A program made the translations under genes and the position numbers. The notes below the pieces were generated by a model. It was not told the DNA's origin, did not search any database, and saw nothing but the letters and a program-made list of their open reading frames with translations. A stretch of 18,650 nt of DNA from a virus. Every line of letters starts with the position of its first letter. Within the stretch, counting starts at the first letter, position 1. The stretch lies in the UHGV virus genome UHGV-0185506. One strand, written 5' to 3'. Below are positions 5,160-18,650 of this stretch, piece after piece.

Positions 5160-6815
5160 ATGAGTACCACAACACGAAAATTTAAAACCATTATCACTGA
5201 TACTGGTGCCCAAAAATTAGCTCAGGCCGCCGCGCCAGATGGTAAGCCTGTCCGCCTGACTCACATGGCCGTGGGCGACGGTGGCGGCACGTTGCCCACA
5301 CCAGACAGTAAGCAGACCTGTCTGGTGCATGAGGTGTGGCGACATACCGTTAATCGCGTCATCCTGGACGCAACACATCAGAACCGCATTATTGCGGAGC
5401 TGGTTATTCCTCCTGAAACGGGCGGATTCTGGGTCCGGGAAATTGGTGTGTTTGATGAGCACGGTGATTTAATTGCGGTGGGCAATACTGCCGAAAGTTA
5501 CAAGCCAACCGTTGCCGAAGGGTCCGGACGTGCGCAAACATTTCGTACCATCTTGACCGTATCCAGCACTGCCACCGTGGAGCTTACCGTGGATAACACC
5601 ATGGTTATGGCCACAGTGGATTACGTGGATGACAAACTGAAAGAGCATGAACAGTCACGACGTCACCCGGACGCCTCGTTGACCGCAAAAGGTTTTACTC
5701 AGTTAAGCAGCGCGACCAACAGTGAATCTGAAACGCTGGCTGCAACTCCGAAAGCGGTTAAGGCAGCGTATGACCTTGCTAACAGAAAATACACCGCTCA
5801 GGACGCCAGCACGGGGCGAAAAGGTCTTGTCCAGTTAAGCAGCGCCACTAACAGTGATTCGGAAACGCTTGCTGCGACTCCGAAAGCAGTGAAAGCAGCG
5901 AATGACAATGCAAACAAGCGAGTACCTAAAGGAGCGGGATTAAATGAGTACGCCGAAAATATAAGTGATATTGCTACTGATTTACGTACGCGTGGTGGCT
6001 TTTTTAATGCTCCCTCAGCAAAGAATGGAATGCCTGGAGGACACACCTGGAAGCACTACATCAACTCTGCACACAGCAATACTCAGGGATACAATACTGT
6101 TATTGGCATTGATTTTAATGGAGATGTAATCGGTTTTGCGGCAGTTTGCGCAGGTGTTTTTAAGGGGTGGAAGTTGATTCATCATGACGGGTATAGCAAC
6201 TTCCCGGTAGGCGCTGCGATCCCGTGGCCTTCTGATTCAGTACCAACAGGCTATGCAATTATGCAGGGGCAGACTTTTGATAAAGCAGCCTATCCCTTGC
6301 TCGCAGCAGCTTATCCGTCAGGGGTGATTCCAGATATGCGCGGCTGGATAATCAAGGGCAAGCCCGCCAGCGGGCGTGCTGTATTGTCACAGGAACAGGA
6401 CGGGATTAAATCGCATACTCACAGTGCCAGTGCGTCAAATACGGATTTAGGAACGAAAACGACCAGTTCATTTGATTACGGCACGAAGACAGTCAGTACG
6501 TTTAACCACGGAACAAAAACCACTAATACAACTGGTAACCATACACATACCATTTACAGAGGGAATGCCAATACTAATGGTGAAACCGGAAAAACAGGTT
6601 TTGACAACCCATCGTTTAATGGCACATCAGGAGCTGCCGGGAATCATGCCCACACGGTAGATATCGGCTCACATAATCATACGGTTGGTATTGGTGCCCA
6701 TACGCACACAGTGGCATTAGGTGCGCACGGGCACACCATCACGGTAAATGCTACGGGTAATTCAGAGAACACCGTAAAAAACATTGCATATAACTATATT
6801 GTGAGGCTCGCATGA
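5160..6815 (+). CDS. H: Tail fibre protein H: conserved P2-type N-terminus, mosaic C-terminus with HxH (gp37-like) repeats
   Basis: N-terminus [23 protein letters not shown]... and duplicated [22 protein letters not shown] motifs are hallmarks of P2-type fibres. C-terminus [36 protein letters not shown]...NYIVRLA matches the HxH-repeat ends of Stf/gp37-type fibres. Confidence 0.9.
5696..5898 (+). repeat. Imperfect tandem direct repeat of about 75-80 bp inside H, encoding the duplicated QLSSATNS(E/D)[14 protein letters not shown] motif
   Basis: Two near-identical DNA blocks starting near 5696 and 5819 (…cagttaagcagcgc…gaaacgct…gctgc…actccgaaagc…). Confidence 0.8.
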
Positions 6816-7678
6816 TTAAGTTAATTCTTTCAGAGCCAGTCCATGAAATGGCAGATGCGTTTAAACGCGTTTTTGGCAATACCGACAATGTGGACGTTGT
6901 AGAAAAACCATTTGAAGCAATCTCAGAATTTGACTGCATGGTAAGTGCGGCAAACAGTTTCGGGCTAATGGATGGCGGCGTGGATGCTGCCATTACCGCA
7001 TTTTTTGGTACTCAACTACAGACGCGTGTTCAGAATCATATTATTCGTGAATATCTTGGTGAACAGCCCGTAGGGTCTGCTTTTGTTATTGAAACGGGGC
7101 ATAATCATCACCCCTGGCTGGTACATGCGCCAACAATGCGTGTTCCGCTGACAATTGACGGAACAGACGCTGTATATAACGCCACGTGGGCCGCTCTGCT
7201 TGCCATCTTTCAGCACAATAAAAATGCAACGACAGACAGGAAAATAAAAACGGTGGTATTACCTGCAATGGGGGCCGGATGTGGTCAGGTGCCGTTTGAA
7301 AGTGTTGCCCGGCAGATGAAGCTGGCATGGGATAACTTTAATAAAACAGAATCAATTAACTGGGAATACGCATATTCCCGCCAGTGGGCGGTATTTAACA
7401 CATGTGCATACTGCCCCGGTAAATCTGGTTGTCGTTATGCTGATATTAAATATATTGGATGTGGTGATTACCGTACGTATTGCTTACGGTCAGGGCAGGT
7501 ATGTATTAACCCTGAACATCAGGTTGATGACGTGCTGACTAATAATCGCTCTCGCCCGGGGGCACATATACACCAGATTAATCCGGTAAAACCCGTAGGT
7601 AACGTTACCATTGGCGCACACAGCCACGGAAGGAATATCACCATTGGTGCTCATTCCCATACAACCAATAAACAATAA
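6812..7678 (+). CDS. Macro-domain (ADP-ribose binding/hydrolase fold) protein with a Cys-rich, HxH-repeat fibre-tip-like C-terminus
   Basis: ATG overlaps the H stop (ATGA), with SD GAGG upstream. Macro signature: [19 protein letters not shown] (compare NAAN..L..GGGV..AI), LVHAPTM (compare H-VGP), [14 protein letters not shown] (compare FPAISTGIYGYP). C-terminus carries CxxC...C...C and GAHIH/GAHSHG/GAHSHT repeats like the H tip. Confidence 0.6.
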
Positions 7679-7708
7679 TTCTGTCTCTGACATTAAGTAG
7701 AGGTGAAC

Positions 7709-8287
7709 ATGACTTTCAGAATGAGTGCTGAAGCACAAACCATTCGCGTATTTAATTATCTCGATGGTACAAATGAATTTATTGGTGAAAGCGATATGTA
7801 CATTCCACCACATACAGGCTTACCCGCAAACTGTACAGATATTGCACCTCCAGATATTCCGGCTGGCTATGCTGCCGTTTTCAATGCAGACGAAATGAAA
7901 TGGCATCTGATGGAAGACCATCGCGGAAAGACTGTATACGAAACGAAAACAGGAGCAGCAATTTATATTTCTGAGCTTGGAGCATTACCTCCTGACGTAA
8001 CAACAATTTCTCCGACTGGCAATTATCAGAAATGGAATGGTAATGTGTGGGTGGATGATGAAAATGCAGAGCATGATGCGCTTGTCAGAGCAGCTGAGTC
8101 TCAGAAAAAAGAACTACTCAGAAATGCAAGTGAAATAATCACTATCTTGCAGGATGCCGTTGATTTAAGCATTGCGACAAAGGAAGAAATAATGTTACTA
8201 AATGAGTGGAAGATGTATCGTATATTATTGAACAGGATTGATACATCAATGACACTAAATATCCAGTGGCCAACCTCCCCACAGTAA
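7709..8287 (+). CDS. Tail fibre assembly protein (gpG / Tfa family)
   Basis: Position directly after the fibre gene. C-terminal region (…[26 protein letters not shown]) matches the conserved tail-fibre-assembly C-terminal domain. SD GAGGTG before the ATG at 7709; the track start at 7703 is a GTG two codons upstream. Confidence 0.75.
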
Positions 8288-8294
8288 AAAAAAT

Positions 8295-8313
8295 AGCAGG
8301 CGATTCGCCTGCT
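8295..8313. terminator. Bidirectional intrinsic terminator between the convergent assembly and glycosyltransferase genes
   Basis: Hairpin agcaggcg-att-cgcctgct, flanked by an A8 run on the plus strand (a T8 run on the minus strand, directly after the minus-strand gene) and by ttaatt downstream. Confidence 0.7.
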
Positions 8314-8317
8314 TTAA

Positions 8318-9052
8318 TTAATTGCGGCTGGATAGTTTAAATTGTTTAATTTTTGCTTTTATGGTGTTTTTCAGCGAGTACGACGGCACCCATTTTAAAG
8401 CAACCTGCCAAGGACGAGGCGAGCCATGAAAACATACTATTCTGGCGTTTTCAGGCACTGACCCATTGGCCAAACCATCATGTAGTTCAGCATTGAAACC
8501 AATCATTTTAGGTGTGGCAATATTTGCTTTATAACTCACAATAAATCCGGGAAGAACATCCTGCCAACGTTCTGCGTCAGGATATATTTCACTGATAAAT
8601 CCCTGATCACCGTGATAAGGAGGTAATTTATTCCTGGACATTATCTGTTCAGCATTATCCTTGAAAGCATTCCAAGCACGGTATTTTTCCTTTGCTGGAA
8701 TAAACATAATACCAGAAGCAGCGGGAGCATTTTCTTTACCGACGCATGAGAAATCGGTAAGCATTGTCATATTCTGCAAATTGGTGAATTCATGTAGATC
8801 GCCCGTAATAACGGTATCGATATCTATATAAAGTATATCTTCCTTTCCAATAACAGGGTGTTCTGGATTGAATAATTCTATTTTCGCCCACCATCCCGGC
8901 CAATTATAAAGAAGCGGCGCAGTTTCTACTCCCTCAATGTAAACTGCGTCTGTTAAACATACTGAACGAATACCCCTGATTTGCTGGTGTAGCCATTGGG
9001 CATGCTTGGGGGTGAAATCTTTGCTACAACGAAGGACTGAAACAACCAGCAC
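8318..9052 (-). CDS. Putative GT-A fold glycosyltransferase, GT8-like (DxD motif); cargo (moron) gene
   Basis: GTG start at 9052 with SD AGGAG 6 nt upstream. WAKIEL...KEDILYIDIDTVITGDL parallels the remembered LgtC segment ARLKL...DKVLYLDIDVLVRDSL. ASGIMFIPAKEKYRAW parallels NAGVLLINLKKWRR. C-terminal FHGSPRPW resembles the GT8 HxxGxxKPW motif. AT-rich relative to the core phage genes. Confidence 0.5.
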   Translation of the reverse strand: MLVVSVLRCSKDFTPKHAQWLHQQIRGIRSVCLTDAVYIEGVETAPLLYNWPGWWAKIELFNPEHPVIGKEDILYIDIDTVITGDLHEFTNLQNMTMLTDFSCVGKENAPAASGIMFIPAKEKYRAWNAFKDNAEQIMSRNKLPPYHGDQGFISEIYPDAERWQDVLPGFIVSYKANIATPKMIGFNAELHDGLANGSVPENARIVCFHGSPRPWQVALKWVPSYSLKNTIKAKIKQFKLSSRN

Positions 9053-9080
9053 TACTTACTCCTAAATACACAACTGTAGA

Positions 9081-9108
9081 TATATAACTCGCGTTTATGA
9101 TATCACAA
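9081..9108 (-). promoter_or_regulatory. Candidate sigma70 promoter for the glycosyltransferase gene
   Basis: Minus-strand reading gives TTGTGA (-35; plus 9103-9108), a 16-nt spacer, then TATATA (-10; plus 9081-9086), about 25 nt upstream of the SD, in an AT-rich spacer. Confidence 0.35.
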
Positions 9109-9334
9109 ACAAAAGCATAAAACTTACCCACATAAGTAGAGTCATATAGTCTCTGCCAATATAATGAGTGACTATTTCACTAAGCTTTCATCGAAACAAT
9201 AGACCTAGAGTTAAGCTATTAATCACTCTAACAAGGTAGAGATATTGATTTTGCTATACCGACGTTTTGTCAGTACTTCCCCAGCAAGACACAACATGAA
9301 GTCGGCACAGTTTTTGAAGTTATTTAAGGAACAG

Positions 9335-9366
9335 AAAAACCGCTAATCTGATCATTAGCGGTTTTT
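9335..9366. terminator. Bidirectional intrinsic terminator 9 nt downstream of the U stop
   Basis: aaaaa-CCGCTAAT-ctgatc-ATTAGCGG-ttttt: 8-bp perfect stem with A-run and T-run on either side. Confidence 0.8.
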
Positions 9367-9374
9367 GCGTTAAA

Positions 9375-9869
9375 TCAGAACACCCCTTTAACTGAACTGG
9401 CTGCGCTGTTAAGGGATGACGTCACCTTATCTTTGAAGCCGGACAGCATATCACTGAACGATGAGGATTGCAGGCGCTCCCGCAAATCCTCATCACAGCG
9501 TTCAAGAGTCAGTGAAAATTCTATCTTTTTCGCCTTACCGTAGCGATCAAACTCGGAACGGGTCGTATTCGTTTCAGTCAGTACATACATGCCGTAAATC
9601 TGCCCAACACCATCAATCAGAGGCCAGGGGCGTCCTGTATATGCCTGCGTGGTCAGCAACGAAAGCGACACTTCGCCACCTGTAATTTCAGGATAAAGCA
9701 CGCCGGAAAGCACGATGCGATCATCACCTGCGCCGATATACTGCCAGCTTGCTGAACGGTTAACGCGTTCATTTTTCACATGCCGCCAGCTTTTGTTTTG
9801 CTGTAACAGCTGATGCGGCAATGTGCGCAGCTCAAAAACAAACATGCCGTAGATCATCATCATGGCCAT
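9375..9869 (-). CDS. U: Tail protein U (P2 gpU-like)
   Basis: …FVFELRTLPHQLLQQNKSWRHVKNERV…YPEITGG…WPLIDGVGQIYGMYVL matches the remembered gpU. Follows T on the same strand. Confidence 0.85.
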   Translation of the reverse strand: MAMMMIYGMFVFELRTLPHQLLQQNKSWRHVKNERVNRSASWQYIGAGDDRIVLSGVLYPEITGGEVSLSLLTTQAYTGRPWPLIDGVGQIYGMYVLTETNTTRSEFDRYGKAKKIEFSLTLERCDEDLRERLQSSSFSDMLSGFKDKVTSSLNSAASSVKGVF

Positions 9870-9875
9870 GACTCC

Positions 9876-12719
9876 TCAATCTTTATCGTAAAAACTGCCA
9901 CGTCCGGCACGGTCGCGTCGTTCCAATTCTGCCCTGACCATTTCACCGACCAGTTTCGCCAGTTCGCGGGGATTCTGCGTAACAACGTTATGCAGATGAA
10001 CATGAATTTCACCGCCAAATCCGGAGACAACAGGCTCCCGGTTACGGGAAGTTGCAGGAACTGATGCCACTGGCGATCGTATGGCCTCCGCCACCGGGCG
10101 GGAGCTGGCCGCAACAACAGGGACCAGCGCCGGAGGCAGAGGAGTCTGGACCACGGGTGTGATGTTGATTGCGGAAGCAGGCTTACTGACCTGCGCAATC
10201 TTCCGCTCCTGCCACTCCCCACGAACAGCAAGTGCGCGGGGCAGGTTCTTAAAGACAATATCGCCGGGGCCAATGCGTTTTTTCGTCTCATCAACCAGCT
10301 TACCTGTGTTATCAGCAATTTTGCTGAGTCTGCGTAGCGTACCGGTATTGCTGTCTGTGAGCGGTTTGTTGTCTTTGGGTTTATCACCTCCGGTGCCATT
10401 GCCATTTTCCACAAGCTTCGGCGGATTGATTTTCGCCAGGTCCCCCTGAAGCAAGGCAACCTTGTCCTGAAGAATGGCCGCACGCTGTGCGTCTTCGATT
10501 TTCTTGCGCGCCCTTTCCGCTTCATCCGGAAGCACACCGAGCTTTTCAAGTATCCACGCCAGCGTATCCAGCAACATTTTTGCAGGTGTCAGAACAAGTT
10601 GTAACGCACCACCAAGAACGTTACCGAATATCTCGCCAGCACTGGTACATTTATCCAGCGTTTCCTTGCTGGACTCCATCGGTGACAGCAGCGATTTAAA
10701 CCAGTTAAACACCTGGCTTATCCCGCTTCCGATTGCGTCAAAAACAGGACCAAACCGTTCAAAGGTTTCGCGCAACGGGGTCAGCCTTTCCATAATCCCG
10801 CTGAACACCCCGGCAAAAAATGCCCTGATGGGATCCCAGTATTTCCAGATAAGAACGGCAGCTCCGGCAAGCGCAGCCACGATAAGACCAACCGGACTGA
10901 ACAGCGCCCCGATAGCGCCTCCCAGCAAAGAAACGGAACCCGTCACCATTCCCCATAGTGCTGGCAGGAGCCTGACAGCATTCATTGATCTGGTCAGGAG
11001 GGAAAAACCAAGACGCAGTTTTGCCAGTGGACCAGCAAGCACACCAAGAGCAAGCGACAACGAGCCTACGGTTGCAGTCACTGCCAGCAGCGCACCGCCT
11101 GCAATCAGTAGCTGGCGCGTCAGTACAGGATGGGCCTGCGCCAGTGCCGTCACCTTTGAGACCACCCGCGTTAGCCACTGCGTGACAGAACGCAGCGAAC
11201 CGTCAACCAGATCACTGATGCGAATACGAAGACCTTCCCATGCGCTGTCGAGATTTTTCAGGTCGCCATCAAGGTTGTCGGCCATAACCTTTGCTGTGCG
11301 TTCAGCCTCACCGCGTGCGCCCTCAAGTTCTTTTCTCAGTTTGGGTAAGGAACCGTCACCCGCCGCATCAACGAGCGCCATAAACGATGTGAAAGCCTCT
11401 TCCCCGGCGATGTCCTTAAAGAAGGATACCCGGTCAACTTCCCCGTATTTGCGGGTAGCTTTATAAAGGTCAGCCAGCAGATCTTCCATCGGGCGCATTT
11501 TGCCCCCGGCATCCGAGACGGACACGCCCAGCTCTTTCAGAGCTTCTGCCGCCGCCTTTGGCGGTGATGCCAGACGAGCCAGGCTGGCACGCATTGCCGT
11601 CCCGGCATCACTCCCCCTGATGCCCATATTCGCCAGCACGCCCGCCATAGCTGCGGCCTGCTCCAGCGATATTCCCAGCTTACCCGCCACCGGACCTGCA
11701 TATTTCATGGTTTCGCCCAGTGCGCGAAGGTCAGTGTTGGTACGGGTAAACGCTGCGGTGAGTGTGTCACCGACCCGGTCCATCTGGTCAGCAGAAAGGC
11801 CGAACTGCGTCAGGATATTTGAGCCAATATCCGCCGTCTCGCCGAGATCCATACCGCCAGCCGTTGCCATGCTCAGCACGCCGGGAAGCGCAGCCTGAAT
11901 GGCCTGCGGAGTGAAGCCAGCCATTGCAAGAAATGCCTGTCCACTGGCGGCATCGCCTGCGGTGAACTGCGTTTCAGAGCCAAGTTTTAACGCCTGCTCA
12001 CGCAGCGCCTTAAACTGCGGGCTGTTTTTGTCGATTCGCGTCAGTGCCTGAACGCGGGACATCTCTTTCCCGAACCCGATCGCGGGCTGTAAAAAACGCC
12101 CGGCAGCATAGCCGCCCGCCGCTGCCGCACCAATTGCCAGCGCACCACCTGTTTTCAGTTTTCCCGCTGTTTCCTGCGCGCGCGAATACCGCTCACGCGC
12201 CTGCGTTACACGTGCAAGCGCCTGCCGTTCGCGTTCAAGCTGGTTGTTGTATTGTTCGGTGCGTCTGATGGCCTGCTGGATGGTGTTATCACTGCCTGTC
12301 AGGGAAATGCCGTGGCGTTTCAGCTCTCCGCCAAGCTCCCGCATTTTCTGAATTTCCCGTGCGCGCGATTCATTCAGGCGTTCAAGCCGGGTGCTTAACT
12401 GCTGCATCAGCTTTTGTTGTTTTTCGCTGAGCACTGCCCCCGTGCGTTGTAACTGATTAAGGGCGTTAAGTTGGCGTCGTGCTTTCACGATGCCAGCATC
12501 CGCTTTACTGACAGCGTCGCGGGCGCGCTCAAATGATCGCGCCTGACGCTCGAGATTTTTGATCGCCCCCTGCGTTCGCTGGATGGAGTCACCAAACTGC
12601 CCCATCAGGCGGCGTGCGTTTTCGGCAGGTCGGGTCAGCCTGTCAACGGCGCTGAAAGCGACCCGGATATCAAGAGTCTTCATCGTCTGCATTCCCACTG
12701 CGAAGTGCCGCCCGCTCAC
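9876..12719 (-). CDS. T: Tail tape measure protein T
   Basis: 947 aa, Ala/Gln/Arg-rich and coiled-coil-like, with internal hydrophobic segments. Position after E/E' and before U. Confidence 0.9.
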   Translation of the reverse strand: MSGRHFAVGMQTMKTLDIRVAFSAVDRLTRPAENARRLMGQFGDSIQRTQGAIKNLERQARSFERARDAVSKADAGIVKARRQLNALNQLQRTGAVLSEKQQKLMQQLSTRLERLNESRAREIQKMRELGGELKRHGISLTGSDNTIQQAIRRTEQYNNQLERERQALARVTQARERYSRAQETAGKLKTGGALAIGAAAAGGYAAGRFLQPAIGFGKEMSRVQALTRIDKNSPQFKALREQALKLGSETQFTAGDAASGQAFLAMAGFTPQAIQAALPGVLSMATAGGMDLGETADIGSNILTQFGLSADQMDRVGDTLTAAFTRTNTDLRALGETMKYAGPVAGKLGISLEQAAAMAGVLANMGIRGSDAGTAMRASLARLASPPKAAAEALKELGVSVSDAGGKMRPMEDLLADLYKATRKYGEVDRVSFFKDIAGEEAFTSFMALVDAAGDGSLPKLRKELEGARGEAERTAKVMADNLDGDLKNLDSAWEGLRIRISDLVDGSLRSVTQWLTRVVSKVTALAQAHPVLTRQLLIAGGALLAVTATVGSLSLALGVLAGPLAKLRLGFSLLTRSMNAVRLLPALWGMVTGSVSLLGGAIGALFSPVGLIVAALAGAAVLIWKYWDPIRAFFAGVFSGIMERLTPLRETFERFGPVFDAIGSGISQVFNWFKSLLSPMESSKETLDKCTSAGEIFGNVLGGALQLVLTPAKMLLDTLAWILEKLGVLPDEAERARKKIEDAQRAAILQDKVALLQGDLAKINPPKLVENGNGTGGDKPKDNKPLTDSNTGTLRRLSKIADNTGKLVDETKKRIGPGDIVFKNLPRALAVRGEWQERKIAQVSKPASAINITPVVQTPLPPALVPVVAASSRPVAEAIRSPVASVPATSRNREPVVSGFGGEIHVHLHNVVTQNPRELAKLVGEMVRAELERRDRAGRGSFYDKD

Positions 12720-12888
12720 GCCAGCTAACCACTTCGCCGGGCGTCATCATGAAGATTTCGGCGGGCGACCAGTTAAAAATAACGGCAATATCTGCCACAA
12801 AGTCTTCTATGTGCTCAAAGCACACAACCGTGATCAGGCTTCCGTCGCCTGTTCGTTCTTCCCGCCAGAGTCCGCACCGCTCAAAAAA
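12670..12888 (-). CDS. E': E' extension: -1 frame segment fused to E by programmed frameshift to give E+E', overlapping the T start
   Basis: The -1 frame is open from 12918 to 12670 and bridges the E stop to the T start. Slippery heptamer T TTT TTG on the minus strand at 12888-12882, read as N-F-L in frame 0 and as F-F-E after slippage. Confidence 0.7.
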   Translation of the reverse strand, partial: FFERCGLWREERTGDGSLITVVCFEHIEDFVADIAVIFNWSPAEIFMMTPGEVVSWRERAALRSGNADDEDS

Positions 12889-13202
12889 TTTACGGCAACC
12901 ACACATAACTGAATAAAGTCACGGGATGCCATTTTTTTGATCGTCACTTCATCCAGTCGCGGTGATGTCACGCGCGACAACAGCGTAAACATGGATTCCG
13001 CTTTCAGATTCAGCACATCAGACAGCGACAGACCACGCAGGGATCCAGCCTGCTCAATAGCCCCGGTGATCTCCACATACGTGATTTTTTCGTCGCCTCG
13101 CTCAATTGGTTGGGTAAGTTTTACGCCGCGCTCGCTGGTTTCTTTCGCAGTATCAGCAACCACCACAGCGTTTTCAGTATCGGTATTTTTCGTCTCTTTC
13201 AT
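12834..13202 (-). CDS. E: Tail assembly chaperone E (P2 gpE-like)
   Basis: 122 aa, acidic, between the tube gene and T. Contains the T TTT TTG slip site near its 3' end. Confidence 0.8.
   Translation of the reverse strand: MKETKNTDTENAVVVADTAKETSERGVKLTQPIERGDEKITYVEITGAIEQAGSLRGLSLSDVLNLKAESMFTLLSRVTSPRLDEVTIKKMASRDFIQLCVVAVNFLSGADSGGKNEQATEA
12882..12888 (-). other. Programmed -1 ribosomal frameshift slippery heptamer T TTT TTG
   Basis: Plus strand caaaaaa at 12882-12888 gives minus-strand TTTTTTG in the X XXY YYZ register of the E frame. Confidence 0.7.
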
Positions 13203-13256
13203 CAGAAAACTCCTTTCAGTCAGAGGCGACGCACTGCGCCGCCTGCATATTACTTA

Positions 13257-13769
13257 TCAGCCAAGCCCAAGCGCGGAACGGATGCGATCGGGCACAATGT
13301 CCTTGCCGTCCTTCCGGTAAATAAAGTTCAGCAGGTCAATCTCCCACAACGGGCGATCGTTAACACTCAGCTTGTAGTAGGTGTTTTTAATGGCGTAAGT
13401 GTGTGATGTGGCTTCGCCCTGTTTGGCTTCCCCCATATCAATTTCCGTCACACGTCCGCGCATTTCGACTTCATACAGGTCGCTTTCTGCATCGGTGTAG
13501 TATTCACCCGCAAAACGCAGCAGCGTGCCGTCAATCGTGCCACCATACTTAAGGAACAGCTCACGAACTGCGCCCCCCATGACAAAGCTCGCATCAAGCG
13601 CGGAGTCGTCCAGACCGAGATCAATACTTACCGCACCCATCATGCCGCCCCCCCGGTAGCTGTCGGTTTTGCGCGTCAGCTTAGGCAGAGTGACGGACGT
13701 CACCTTACCCACTTCGTTTTCACCATCCACAAACAGCGTAAAAAAGCGAAGATGTTTTGGCACAGCCAT
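13257..13769 (-). CDS. FII: Tail tube protein FII
   Basis: MAVPKHLRF…VTLPKLTRKTDSYRGGGM…LGLDD matches the remembered P2 FII. Start overlaps the FI stop (TGATG). Confidence 0.9.
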   Translation of the reverse strand: MAVPKHLRFFTLFVDGENEVGKVTSVTLPKLTRKTDSYRGGGMMGAVSIDLGLDDSALDASFVMGGAVRELFLKYGGTIDGTLLRFAGEYYTDAESDLYEVEMRGRVTEIDMGEAKQGEATSHTYAIKNTYYKLSVNDRPLWEIDLLNFIYRKDGKDIVPDRIRSALGLG

Positions 13770-14953
13770 CAGGCACCTCCCAACACCGCAAATGCGGGTT
13801 CAAAGTATTCATCAGTAAACGTCTGGTAAAGCTCCATGTCTTCCAGTGGCGGAACGGGCGTATATTTGTAGCGAATACGCACACGCCCCTGACGTAAATC
13901 CGTGGTGCTGTTATCCACCACGTCATACCAGCACTCCGCGCCAATCAGTTTCCCGGCAGTAACCAGTGAATCCAGCTTTGCCCTGATGGCACTGATAACA
14001 TCCTTCACGTTCGCAGGCGTCAGTGGACTGTCGATGGTTTCAAACTGCGCTTCCGCAATTGAATCAGCCAGCACCTGTGCGGTTCGGGTATACACCTCAA
14101 AGATGTAGGCGTTCGTTTCCGGTGTGCGATTGCCCCAGAAGCGGAACCCGTTGCGACGAATAATGGTCGTGATTTCTTTGTTGTTGAGGCTGTTGGCATC
14201 ACTGTCTTCGGCCTGCAACGACCAGAACACATGCCTGGACATTCCCAGCACATTTTTAACCGGAACGTTGGACAGCGATTTGTGCCAGCCCTGCTCATGG
14301 TCAATGTACGCACGAAGGCCGCACGCATAGGCAGGCGCGGGGAACGTTTCGTTTTCGCCACTTTTCGGGTTGTAGGCGATGAAGTCCGGCCATAAGAGCA
14401 TCACTTCACGTTCGTTGAATTTCTGGCGGTAGGTAATCGCTTCAGCCATCGTGTTACAGCCGTGACATGAGGCATACACAAACGCGCGCAGTTTACCCGC
14501 AATCACGCACAGGGATTTTGTCACCGCCTCCGTGTCCAGCTCCGGCGCGGCCAGAATACGCGGACGGTATCCGATGCTTTCATCCTGCTCTGCAACAAGC
14601 AGCGCATACATCCCCGTATAGCTGCCGTCATCCTCAGAACCACCGATAACCAGTTGATCCTGCGTCTTACCGTCTTCTTCTTTGTGTTCAGCCACGCGAA
14701 CGACGATCACCTTTGTGCTCACCTGGTCTGCGATGGCCTTAAGCGCACGATAAAGCGTCCCCGTTGTTCCGCATTTTCCCAGCACGTCATTGACGCGGGT
14801 CAGCAGTGTGGGCTTGTTCAGCGGGAACAGCTTCGCGTCCGCATCATCCGCCGTTGCCACGATACCGATAACGCTGGAATCAACATCGTTAATCGCTGTT
14901 ACCAGGTCGGTATTTTCCGTAACACGGGCACCATGAAAACGAGTTTCACTCAT
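13769..14953 (-). CDS. FI: Tail sheath protein FI
   Basis: Strong match to the remembered P2 FI across its length (…DADAKLFPLNKP…AIADQ…CGLRAYIDHEQGWHKSLSNV…RRNGFRFWGNRT…YTPVPPLE). SD AAGGGG upstream. Confidence 0.95.
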   Translation of the reverse strand: MSETRFHGARVTENTDLVTAINDVDSSVIGIVATADDADAKLFPLNKPTLLTRVNDVLGKCGTTGTLYRALKAIADQVSTKVIVVRVAEHKEEDGKTQDQLVIGGSEDDGSYTGMYALLVAEQDESIGYRPRILAAPELDTEAVTKSLCVIAGKLRAFVYASCHGCNTMAEAITYRQKFNEREVMLLWPDFIAYNPKSGENETFPAPAYACGLRAYIDHEQGWHKSLSNVPVKNVLGMSRHVFWSLQAEDSDANSLNNKEITTIIRRNGFRFWGNRTPETNAYIFEVYTRTAQVLADSIAEAQFETIDSPLTPANVKDVISAIRAKLDSLVTAGKLIGAECWYDVVDNSTTDLRQGRVRIRYKYTPVPPLEDMELYQTFTDEYFEPAFAVLGGA

Positions 14954-15034
14954 AGCTTCAGCCCCTTGTATCCGTTAAATGATTCGGCAACAATCATCAC
15001 CCACCACGCGCGTAATCTCACCCCTGCGCCGTTC

Positions 15035-15051
15035 TTGTCGCCCGGCGACAA
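15035..15051. promoter_or_regulatory. Perfect 17-bp palindrome TTGTCGCCCGGCGACAA in the divergent FI/D intergenic region; candidate activator site
   Basis: Seen directly in the sequence. Centred about 90 nt upstream of the FI ATG and about 68 nt upstream of the D ATG. The function is inferred, not shown. Confidence 0.3.
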
Positions 15052-15110
15052 CAAAAAGCAGTAACCCCGCCCGCACACACATGCGACCATGCCGCACAGG
15101 GAGGGAGCAG

Positions 15111-16261: not shown

Positions 16262-16522
16262 ATGTTCCGTTGTCCGCTTTGTGGCGCATCTGCCCGTATC
16301 CGCACCAGTCGTTCGGAAAATGATTCAGATACCGTACGGAAAAAATATTACCAGTGTAACAACCTGGAATGCGGCGTATGCTTCTCAACACTGGAAGCTT
16401 TCCATAAATTCACATCGAAACACGCCTCCGGCGTTCACTCTTCAGATGGTATCCCGTGGCATGAGCTGCCAGCTTCACACAGGGGAAACAATCAGATGAG
16501 TTTGCCTTTACCTCAGAATTAA
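16262..16522 (+). CDS. ogr: Late gene transcription activator, Ogr/Delta zinc-finger family
   Basis: MFRCPLCGASARIRTSR…YYQCNNLECGVCF carries the CxxC…CxxC arrangement and N-terminal similarity to the remembered P2 Ogr. SD AAGGGGG upstream. Confidence 0.85.
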   Translation: MFRCPLCGASARIRTSRSENDSDTVRKKYYQCNNLECGVCFSTLEAFHKFTSKHASGVHSSDGIPWHELPASHRGNNQMSLPLPQN

Positions 16523-16712: not shown

Positions 16713-16853
16713 ATGTCGCAAAAATCGCTTATGGCCATCACGTTCTGCGTGACGGCAATCCTCATCATCTGGATGCTGCACGGTTCGCTGTGCGAAATAC
16801 GGATGAGCTTCTGGGGAGCGGAGTTTGCGGCGTTCTTACAGTGTAAGCAGTAA
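16713..16853 (+). CDS. Hok/Gef-family type I toxin (46 aa); absent from the ORF track because of its length
   Basis: Translation MSQKSLMAITFCVTAILIIWMLHGSLCEIRMSFWGAEFAAFLQCKQ. One TM helix followed by the SLCEIR…AAF signature, as in Hok (…[23 protein letters not shown]). SD AAGGAG 6 nt upstream of the ATG. Confidence 0.65.
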   Translation: MSQKSLMAITFCVTAILIIWMLHGSLCEIRMSFWGAEFAAFLQCKQ

Positions 16854-16974: not shown

Positions 16975-17120
16975 GGTGTCCTCACCGACTTGAAACAGTG
17001 ATCAGACTATAAGACAAAGCCCACAATGTAGCGGGCTTACTCCCCTCCCCCCACTAAATGTGGACACATCGTGGAACGAAGAGATATAAAACATTATAAA
17101 TCAATTGGTTATTGAAAGAA

Positions 17121-17150
17121 AAAAGGCCGCAGAGCGGCCTTTTTAGTTAG
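17121..17150 (-). terminator. ihfA intrinsic terminator (bidirectional hairpin)
   Basis: aaaaaa-GGCCGC-agag-GCGGCC-ttttt immediately downstream of the ihfA stop. Confidence 0.75.
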
Positions 17151-17156
17151 ATCAGA

Positions 17157-17456
17157 TTACTCGTCTTTGGGCGAAGCGTTTTCGACCCGGCTTTTTAACT
17201 TCTGCCCTGGTCTGAAGGTCACCACGCGCCGTGCTGTAATGGGAATATCTTCGCCCGTTTTCGGGTTACGTCCCGGACGTTGATTCTTATCACGCAGATC
17301 GAAGTTACCAAAGCCAGAGAGTTTTACCTGCTCGCCGTTTTCCAGAGCGCGACGGATCTCTTCGAAAAACAGTTCAACCAGTTCTTTGGCATCCCGCTTG
17401 CTAAGCCCAAGCTTATCAAACAGATATTCTGACATTTCAGCTTTTGTAAGCGCCAT
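17157..17456 (-). CDS. ihfA: Integration host factor alpha subunit
   Basis: 99-aa translation ([99 protein letters not shown]) matches E. coli IhfA as I recall it. Confidence 0.95.
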
Positions 17457-17460
17457 AGGT

Positions 17461-18650
<1,190 letters not shown>

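Follow-up and report, generated by a model that had tools for sequence, protein, structure and literature searches.

Temperate phages frequently carry accessory genes that alter the surface of their hosts. Gtr systems (GtrABC, O-antigen glucosylation) and O-acetyltransferases are encoded near receptor-binding genes or at prophage ends, and such cargo is thought to change the phage receptor and thereby bring about superinfection exclusion. Gtr systems require a set of three membrane proteins, and they modify the O-antigen in the periplasm. When a phage-borne enzyme alters LPS, it changes the range of phages able to infect the strain and the serotype-like properties of the cell surface, and it may also affect the interaction with a host; receptor modification by temperate phages is already a well-established concept. 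Conversion cargo has been described near receptor-binding genes, with a presumed receptor change leading to superinfection exclusion (PMC11990801), and exclusion factors encoded beside receptor-binding genes, such as T1 Cor and T5 Llp, are likewise an established pattern (PMC11990801).

Among the known systems that come closest to the gene considered here is PmgQ of phage P1 (HdmD in P7; PHROG 1962). The P1 gene is the last in the pmgN-pmgO-pmgP-ppp-pmgQ operon, where it has two MptE-like partners, and the annotation of this operon includes C1 operators as well as a late promoter. Neither lytic growth nor plaque formation of P1 requires pmgQ (PMC10695390). Our search of the pmgQ literature yielded essentiality and expression data, with no function reported.

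Here we analyzed an 18,650-nt stretch of the virus genome UHGV-0185506 (hereafter the window, meaning this entire stretch), in which a gene of the same family lies between a tail-fibre assembly gene and an inverted sheath operon. The gene encodes an intact GT8-like enzyme of the GT-A fold, and we propose, at roughly even odds, that this prophage enzyme modifies the LPS core of the host, leading to exclusion or receptor masking.

The glycosyltransferase gene lies in a variable segment of a P88-like prophage

The gene resides in a prophage of the P88-like (Xuanwuvirus) type that is inserted beside ihfA. Its sheath operon (FI to U, 9375..14953, minus strand) is convergent with the V-W-J-I-H-G genes. 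The last gene of the inverted operon encodes a gpU-like tail protein (9375..9869, minus strand; phrog_76 tail protein, E 2.3e-73; annotated as GpU in PhiR44_2) and is located upstream of the glycosyltransferase gene on the same strand, and the tail-fibre assembly gene equivalent to P2 G (7703..8287, plus strand; phrog_105 tail fiber assembly, E 2.8e-88) is convergent with the glycosyltransferase gene. Using blastn against P88, PhiR44_2 and Chuche together with the annotated regions, we delimited a variable segment at 5916..9329, as homology to P88 and PhiR44_2 ended at 5915 and returned at about 9327–9330, at the gpU terminator. This segment contains the C-terminal part of the tail fibre, a macro-domain gene, the fibre-assembly gene G, the glycosyltransferase gene and its leader. 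The glycosyltransferase gene is present in Chuche and absent from P88 and PhiR44_2; P88 has different versions of the fibre parts in place of the segment, with a DNA invertase following G, and PhiR44_2 has a mere 253-bp gap between G and U.

An earlier reading of the sequence alone (the sequence-only reading) had placed the gene in a slot equivalent to the Z/fun locus of P2. This held insofar as both are variable loci immediately downstream of G in a P2-type genome. However, the P2 locus lies in front of FI, whereas the inverted FI–U operon of P88-like phages puts the 3′ end of the gpU gene at this place, so that the gene is bordered by G on one side and by the 3′ end of gpU on the other, and strict positional equivalence to Z/fun is not supported. 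The locus further differs from Z/fun in that this gene matched no defence model and in that the same locus in P88 is an invertible fibre segment.

The 244-aa ORF that had been reported on the minus strand is present at 8318..9052, with a GTG start codon at 9052..9050 and a stop codon at 8318..8320, and the strong Shine–Dalgarno sequence claimed for it can be read straight off the sequence as AGGAG (9059..9063, minus strand), 6 nt upstream of the GTG. This choice of start codon is favoured because the first residues are shared by the homologues (M/V-L-I-V-S-V-L) in a comparison of their N-termini. The GC content is 41% in the ORF and 35% in the leader, as against 53% in the whole window; this low GC content and the location in a variable fibre-tip segment indicate that the gene was acquired horizontally, and its description as a moron is supported by the low GC content, the terminators on both flanks and the variable locus. 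Comparison with relatives that are 85–89% identical gave dN/dS values of 0.075–0.078, and the glycosyltransferase is 99.6% identical in a viable phage that was isolated independently. Purifying selection (dN/dS about 0.08) acts on this ORF, which is uninterrupted and of full length. The gene is an ordinary kind of phage cargo, and the label "glycosyltransferase" is already attached to it publicly in the near-identical phage Chuche, and to the P1 gene in RefSeq.

The leader and the flanking terminators

The terminator of the FI-FII-E-T-U late operon (hereafter the gpU terminator; 9335..9366, minus strand), detected by a terminator scan, has a predicted folding energy of −19 kcal/mol (z −5.79) and is predicted to insulate the glycosyltransferase gene from late transcription. 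Between this terminator and the start codon lies an AT-rich leader (9053..9334, minus strand, 35% GC); measured up to the gpU gene (9053..9374), it spans 322 bp at 35% GC, in good agreement with the approximately 320 bp given previously. Because the strong gpU terminator is located upstream of the gene, a promoter would be expected inside 9053..9334. A plausible sigma70 promoter had been proposed there, but no site scored above chance: the top score of a weighted hexamer scan in the leader was 8.6, below the mean maximum of 10.3 for shuffled leaders, with 86% of the shuffles scoring equally well or better, and a sigma-70 consensus scan returned zero sites in the leader. The best local candidate, TTGTGA (9108..9103) and TATATA (9086..9081) separated by 16 nt, was not above chance. 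The leader also lacked a P2 late promoter–type (Ogr) TGT-N12-ACA box; the one relevant box of this type lies between FI and D (15036..15053), and variants with one mismatch near 9094–9111 belong to the TGATATCA palindrome. A search of complete E. coli genomes and plasmids found no DNA relatives of the leader, and the upstream regions of the homologues are not conserved among them. The leader contains no ORF of at least 36 aa, and a small CDS annotated there in Chuche was rejected as a gene, its frame not being open in the window.

On the other side, the tight terminator noted earlier is an intrinsic hairpin (8295..8313, minus strand; terminator scan) that begins 5 nt past the glycosyltransferase stop codon and sits between the convergent G and glycosyltransferase genes. 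It has an 8-bp stem with 6 GC pairs and a 3-nt loop, followed by A and 8 T, and its predicted folding energy is −13.9 kcal/mol (z −4.07), a stability reached by 0 of 200 shuffled sequences. With terminators on both sides the gene is solitary, in contrast to pmgQ in its P1 operon. An Rfam scan of 8100..9600 gave only a sub-threshold IS009 match in gene G and, at the gpU terminator, a miRNA match attributable to chance. In other E. coli prophages, DNA matching the gpU terminator forms the 3′ end of invertase ("recombinase family") genes.

The protein is a compact GT8-like enzyme of the PmgQ family

The protein matched the PHROG 1962 profile with an E value of 2.8e-84, with residues 1–233 aligned to profile positions 1–229 of 230, and tblastn gave 36.6% identity to P1 pmgQ over 92% of the length. 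PmgQ/HdmD and the window protein, both products of phage-borne accessory genes, are also similar in size (233 and 244 aa, respectively). In an alignment of 48 homologues with the window protein as the first row, 14 residues were invariant (C31, W53, K56, F60, D76, D78, G147, D148, P167, S172, P199, H208, G209 and P211), all of which are present in the window protein. The DxD and FHGSPRPW motifs singled out by the sequence-only reading were thereby borne out: the former is D76-I-D78, and D76, D78, H208, G209 and P211 are all among the invariant positions.

Searches with the single sequence were insufficient to establish a link to GT8. Pfam PF01501 (Glyco_transf_8) scored 11.8 bits against a gathering cut-off of 24.3, with only residues 72–95 around the DxD aligned; the Glyco_transf_8C domain was not detected in the protein by Pfam, NCBIfam had no model for it, and phmmer with the single protein gave no matches among the PDB sequences. 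The family profile was required for this purpose and reached GT8 structures by sequence (6mw5, E 8e-6; glycogenin, E 4e-4). These alignments span the Lys (K56), DxD (D76/D78), GDQG (D148/Q149) and xxPW motifs, residues that are invariant or nearly so in the 48 homologues. K56, D76xD78 and G147-D148-Q149 align with their GT8 counterparts, whereas the C-terminal motif is compressed (H208-G-S-P-R-P-W214): GT8 enzymes have H-x-x-G-x-x-K-P-W, and the window protein has H-G-x-P-R-P-W with the His offset by two in the HMM alignment. HMMER pairs the Mn-binding His of glycogenin with C206, and the invariant His208, two residues later, is a candidate metal ligand.

An AlphaFold model of the protein (pLDDT 94.6, pTM 0.92) had a GT-A fold, and Foldseek against the PDB placed it closest to solved GT8 structures, with LgtC first (E 5e-8); the top structural relatives include the protein-modifying GT8 enzymes glycogenin, Skp1 GalT and GlyE, as well as the O-antigen enzyme WbbM. 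Fold, motifs and profile matches thus support the earlier assignment to GT8-like, retaining-type GT-A enzymes, even though PF01501 itself stayed below its threshold. The protein resembles GT8 enzymes such as LgtC and glycogenin in its fold and in the catalytic motifs that align, but it is about 60–90 residues shorter than the WaaJ/WaaO-type LPS alpha-hexosyltransferases. Its relatives have 200–250 aa, align over their full length and share the same N-terminus, in keeping with the suggestion of a compact, distinct GT8 subfamily. In view of these full-length relatives and the purifying selection, we rejected the idea that the ORF is a degraded fragment of a longer gene. Transmembrane segments were sought in the protein and not found; its C-terminal 22 residues include 6 basic and 0 acidic residues, and the C-terminal helix does not stand out in its hydrophobic moment.

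Relatives occur in waa loci, in prophages and outside phages

The relatives of the window protein in waa loci are 40–55% identical to it. A 55%-identical homologue is encoded in a Pectobacterium waa operon between the genes for a WaaZ-type Kdo transferase and a GT25 enzyme, with GT9, GT4, Kdo kinase and GT8 genes close by; a paper on Pectobacterium LPS does not cover this gene. Homologues with 46% identity adjoin waaL in the waa clusters of Klebsiella and Raoultella, and, of 80 loci counted at the species level, 8 have WaaL (Wzy_C) as a direct neighbour. In Halomonas, the homologue is paired with a WaaZ-like gene and adjoins a UDP-glucose dehydrogenase gene.

Other relatives reside outside phages. 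A 71%-identical relative stands alone in the Shimwellia chromosome with no phage around it, E. coli plasmids carry close relatives without a phage context, and an 89%-identical relative is located in an effector island. In these phage-free cases, the acceptor cannot be a virion protein.

Relatives closer than those in waa loci are found in prophages, where a tail-fibre assembly gene directly adjoins the homologue in six lineages (the window and Chuche; E. albertii/fergusonii; Salmonella; K. aerogenes; Citrobacter; and phage Chlobot). Some relatives with about 40–47% identity are found inside phage late operons; in one HK97-like prophage, such a gene is flanked by those for capsid and connector and is accompanied by an FkbM methyltransferase gene. 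These late-operon members and the annotation of P1 fit a role in the lytic cycle, and virion glycosylation is possible for those members.

Modification of the LPS core as the proposed function

Because the relatives in waa loci are 40–55% identical to the window protein, the LPS core is the best-supported candidate for its target. The view of the sequence-only reading that this is an LPS-type glycosyltransferase is thus plausible in respect of the target, but no promoter of its own could be identified. The enzyme would be a cytoplasmic, probably membrane-peripheral, metal-dependent retaining glycosyltransferase with a GT8-like GT-A fold. It is predicted to use a UDP-hexose donor with Mn2+ and would probably attach a hexose in alpha linkage to a lipid-linked glycan of the envelope, working from the inner face of the membrane that surrounds the cytoplasm; the LPS core oligosaccharide would be the likeliest acceptor. 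An altered core may then change the receptor of LPS-core-binding phages, resulting in superinfection exclusion or receptor masking; such an alteration would explain why the gene travels beside the fibre and fibre-assembly genes. The gene would resemble Gtr and O-acetyltransferase cargo in its position, but unlike the Gtr proteins, its product appears to be one soluble or peripheral GT-A enzyme in the cytoplasm, where it would most likely modify the core prior to export.

The enzyme could instead act on another acceptor of the host (an O-antigen unit on undecaprenyl-PP, enterobacterial common antigen, capsule or a surface adhesin), which would still amount to surface conversion. The glycogenin, Skp1 GalT, GlyE and WbbM matches among the top fold relatives are consistent with this, as are a Pseudescherichia gene between large Big_1/invasin adhesin genes, the proximity of the gene on E. 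coli plasmids to genes for an ESPR autotransporter and an FkbM methyltransferase, and a hexapeptide-repeat acyltransferase gene, of a type often linked to O-antigen modification, that follows the gene in one Salmonella prophage. However, the waa core loci are the only contexts with a clear pathway, the Pseudescherichia loci represent a single syntenic arrangement that entered the count through several closely related species, and wzx, wzy and O-unit genes are not recurrent neighbours; we therefore regard another host acceptor as rather unlikely. In our judgement, it is quite unlikely that the enzyme acts in the lytic cycle on proteins of the phage particle itself (tail fibre or capsid), to the benefit of stability, host range or immune evasion. 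Close relatives exist where there is no virion (the Shimwellia chromosome, plasmids, waa operons and the effector island), the strong gpU terminator parts the gene from the late operon, the gene is usually convergent with the fibre operon, and P1 forms plaques without pmgQ; the GC content, too, marks foreign cargo and not a core structural function.

P2-type phages carry defence systems at variable loci, which would agree with a role in anti-phage defence or counter-defence in which DNA, nucleotides or signalling molecules are glycosylated. Among phages, GT-A enzymes acting on 5hmC DNA do exist, but they are JGT/TarP-like with another motif set and need an adjacent methyltransferase and a dioxygenase or ThyS pathway (bioRxiv 10.1101/2023.12.21.572611). 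DNA glycosylation was rejected for the window protein, as the phage DNA glycosyltransferases belong to a different GT-A clade and the 5hmC pathway that they require is absent here. The fold matches are to GT8 enzymes that transfer sugars to glycans or proteins, family members occur in LPS loci, and the glycosyltransferase matched no PADLOC family at E values up to 1. The glycosylation-based anti-phage function considered earlier is consequently very improbable. A decaying or inactive remnant without current function seems equally far-fetched: the failure to find a promoter and the presence of truncated or partial copies (86–181 aa) in a cluster at about 84% identity would fit it, but the frame is unbroken and of full length, 14 of 14 invariant family residues are retained, dN/dS is about 0.08, and a viable phage obtained independently carries the 99.6%-identical protein.

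Wider distribution of the family

Modification of the LPS core by the window enzyme may be one instance of a broader pattern. We tentatively suggest, as a possibility that is more doubtful than not, that the PmgQ family is a widespread, unnamed GT8-like clade that is used by bacteria in LPS-core loci and has been captured repeatedly by phages (P2-like, Mu-like, lambdoid, P1 and HK97-like), often with an FkbM methyltransferase or a ulosonic-acid transferase of the WaaZ/MptE-like type as partner, to remodel the receptor that is read by the neighbouring fibres. If true, this would provide a function for the long-unexplained pmgO-pmgP-pmgQ genes of P1. The present analysis joins three sets of "hypothetical" proteins into one testable family, namely P1 PmgQ, those encoded in the waa loci of Pectobacterium, Klebsiella and Raoultella, and the fibre-adjacent prophage cargo. 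A one-gene cytoplasmic core modifier that moves together with the fibre modules would offer a compact way of determining phage host range, with a bearing on phage therapy and phage typing. The family comprises about 4,800 clusters at 50% identity, and among ten of its fusion proteins analyzed with Pfam, partner domains were recognized in two, one being MptE-like and the other a methyltransferase.

A GT8-like glycosyltransferase candidate

When the 244-aa protein was searched as a single sequence, its Pfam match to GT8, around the DxD motif, fell below threshold (11.8 vs 24.3 bits), and searches of NCBIfam, PADLOC, and PDB sequences gave no match. It is a full-length member of PHROG 1962 ("glycosyltransferase"; E 2.8e-84), a label already carried by the 99.6% identical CDS of the near-identical phage Chuche, and is homologous to P1 PmgQ and P7 HdmD (36.6% identity, 92% of the length). 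In a 90%-clustered database 597 relatives were found, and 4,795 representatives of 50%-identity clusters scored E up to 1e-3; the representatives listed were mostly 200–220 aa, with a few longer fusion proteins, and nearly all relatives are labelled "hypothetical protein."

A profile of a 48-sequence alignment, in which K56, D76, D78, G147, D148, H208, G209, and P211 are invariant, matched the solved GT8 enzymes Skp1 alpha-galactosyltransferase (E 8e-6) and glycogenin (E 4e-4) in alignments spanning the Lys, DxD, GDQG, and (K/R)PW motifs. HMMER paired the metal-binding His of glycogenin with C206, two residues ahead of the invariant H208; the C-terminal motif is a compressed variant, and we infer that H208 serves as a metal ligand. 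These profile matches and invariant motifs bear out the earlier, sequence-only reading of the protein as GT8-like and predict a retaining-type enzyme; it belongs to a distinct subfamily for which Pfam has no model. The enzyme is predicted to work like the GT8 LPS alpha-hexosyltransferases (LgtC and WaaJ/WaaO), but differs from GT8 in lying below the Pfam membership threshold and in having no detectable Glyco_transf_8C domain. The protein has a strongly basic C-terminal tail, and a search for transmembrane segments found none. Comparison with relatives at 85–89% identity gave a dN/dS of 0.075–0.078, indicating purifying selection. Together with the full-length relatives, this shows that the gene is not a degraded fragment of a longer one, a possibility raised earlier.

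Gene anatomy and leader

The minus-strand ORF (8318..9052) starts with GTG, 6 nt downstream of a Shine–Dalgarno sequence, AGGAG (9059..9063, minus strand). Its terminator (8295..8313), which starts 5 nt past the stop codon, consists of a GC-rich hairpin with an 8-bp stem, then A and eight T, and folds at -13.9 kcal/mol (z -4.1 against shuffles). A strong hairpin terminator of its own (9335..9366; z -5.8) closes the preceding gene, gpU (9375..9869), leaving a leader of about 280–320 bp, counted from this terminator or from gpU itself. GC content is 35% in the leader and 41% in the ORF vs 53% in the whole window. The coordinates, fold z-scores, and GC values thus agree with the anatomy first described, with its Shine–Dalgarno sequence, tight terminator, and AT-rich leader. 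Both the start and the short N-terminus are confirmed by homologues in other genomes, which begin with the same residues (M/V-L-I-V-S-V-L).

The plausible sigma70 promoter proposed for the leader did not hold up, as no site there rose above chance. A consensus scan of the leader found no sigma-70 site, and in a weighted scan the top score was 8.6 vs a mean best of 10.3 in shuffled leaders, 86% of which scored at least as high as the real one. The best local candidate, TTGTGA-16-TATATA (9108..9081), is only a 4+4 match, and the leader contains no P2-type Ogr box (TGT-N12-ACA). Because the gpU terminator upstream is strong, a promoter for the gene is implied, and we predict that it lies in the leader.

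A variable locus after gene G

The window is a P88-like prophage (Xuanwuvirus, Peduoviridae) whose FI-FII-E-E'-T-U tail operon (9375..14953, minus strand) runs opposite to that of P2, a trait shared with other P88-like phages; the operon converges with V-W-J-I-H-G and diverges from D. Between FI and D (14954..15110) lies an Ogr-type TGT-N12-ACA box (15036..15053), the only one in the window outside the fibre gene. As a consequence of this inversion, the gene is flanked by G and by the 3' end of gpU rather than placed ahead of FI. Its earlier equation with the Z/fun cargo site of P2 was therefore correct as to a variable locus after G but not as to geometry; a further difference from Z/fun is that no PADLOC defence model matches the gene.

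In blastn comparisons, homology of the related phages P88 and PhiR44_2 with the window ends at 5915, within the fibre gene, and restarts at 9327–9330. Past its fibre-assembly gene, P88 carries alternative fibre parts and a DNA invertase; in PhiR44_2 the G-to-U gap is just 253 bp; and the window and Chuche share a macro-domain gene, G, and the glycosyltransferase gene. The gpU terminator region (9335..9373) matches, at 97% identity, the 3' end of genes labelled "recombinase family protein" (fibre invertases) in other E. coli prophages. Since the P88 invertase sits at this same spot, one junction serves different cargo.

Genomic contexts and partners of the family

A Pectobacterium homologue (55% identity) lies within a co-directional waa operon, in the order GT9, GT4, Kdo kinase, sulfatase-type transferase, GT8, WaaZ-type Kdo transferase, PmgQ-family gene, and GT25. 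Klebsiella and Raoultella homologues (46% identity) adjoin waaL within the hldD-waaF-waaC...waaA-waaE-coaD cluster, and WaaL is an immediate neighbour in 8 of 80 species-level loci. Other relatives occur apart from any phage: a Shimwellia copy (71% identity) alone in the chromosome, copies on E. coli plasmids, and the closest database relative (89% identity) in an island (L101, 5773..10923) beside rsmF/yebV. In such phage-free settings, the enzyme must act on a bacterial acceptor. The island also encodes an NleF caspase-inhibitor effector, an AvrPphF-ORF2 (HopF)-like protein, and a metallophosphatase, and looks like a prophage-remnant effector locus.

In six prophage lineages the family directly adjoins fibre-assembly genes; the encoding of exclusion factors beside receptor-binding genes is a known pattern (PMC11990801). 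In a Salmonella Mu-like prophage (L096, 7741..8277), a hexapeptide-repeat acyltransferase gene follows the homologue, the pair being wedged between fibre and fibre-assembly genes as a possible two-gene surface-modification cassette.

MptE/WaaZ-like genes are immediate neighbours in 10 of the 80 loci, and FkbM methyltransferases in 8. MptE-like or WaaZ-type (CMP-ulosonic-acid transferase-like) partners flank the family in P1 (pmgO and pmgP) and phiNP (phiNP_031) and recur in Pectobacterium and in Halomonas, where a copy paired with a WaaZ-like gene stands beside UDP-glucose dehydrogenase; one fusion protein unites both domains. Pairing is exemplified by loci L015 (P1, 78.6–82.2 kb), L014 (phiNP), L097, and L104 and by protein P0191. 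Such repeated pairing suggests that these enzymes form a glycan module of two or three members, only one of which is encoded in the window.

Likely acceptor

Taken together, the waa loci, phage-free copies, fibre-adjacent cargo, and recurrent partners point to a role of the family in building or decorating an envelope glycan. The LPS core is the sole target with direct locus support, and we put the chance that the enzyme modifies it and so alters a receptor at about even; action on another envelope or protein acceptor is distinctly less probable. The presumed logic resembles Gtr-type lysogenic conversion, although Gtr is a three-protein periplasmic system whereas this is a single, predicted cytoplasmic enzyme.

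For part of the family a lytic-cycle role is plausible, since members at 40–47% identity also lie within phage late operons (in one HK97-like prophage, between capsid and connector genes with an FkbM methyltransferase), Phage_HCP and Phage_capsid are recurrent neighbours, and annotations of the P1 pmgQ operon include C1 operators and a late promoter. P1 pmgQ is dispensable for lytic growth (PMC10695390). Such a role could consist of masking receptors on lysed-cell debris or of glycosylating virions; we regard virion glycosylation by this enzyme as unlikely. A function in defence or DNA glycosylation, to which the PADLOC result runs counter, is highly improbable, and decay to a pseudogene, at odds with the purifying selection, equally so.

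Public phage records already name the gene as a "glycosyltransferase," and receptor modification by prophages is a well-known concept. The gain is modest: an unnamed GT8-like family ties together P1 PmgQ, waa-locus genes, and fibre-adjacent prophage cargo.

Other features of the window

A gene for a 288-aa macro-domain protein (6812..7678, plus strand; Pfam Macro E 4e-18; phrog_2613, "unknown function") separates tail-fibre gene H from fibre-assembly gene G, and its ATG start overlaps the stop codon of H (ATGA). In Gifsy-1 and in Salmonella phages SEN4/SEN5, relatives likewise neighbour fibre genes, and several jumbo phages have relatives labelled "tail protein"; a domain that binds or hydrolyses ADP-ribose, encoded within a fibre module, could be injected to act in counter-defence. 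A sub-threshold Rfam IS009 match within G (8100..8250, plus strand; 40 bits vs a gathering score of 117, E 1.5e-7) probably stems from homology to a prophage tfa region and not from an RNA gene.

Chuche homology stops at 16984, and the far end (16985..18540) comprises the prophage end and a flank of host DNA with ihfA (17157..17456) and the 3' part of pheT (17461..18540), both on the minus strand, so that the window represents an integrated prophage. Within this far end, 16993..17104 is 76% identical to the integrase-proximal region of Chuche. Among 5,426 complete E. coli genomes, the best match to the host flank reaches just 96.5% identity, so a non-coli Escherichia may be the host. Near the prophage end, ogr (16262..16522) is followed downstream by a putative Hok/MokW-like host-killing gene (about 16713..16853, plus strand), placed by alignment with Chuche.
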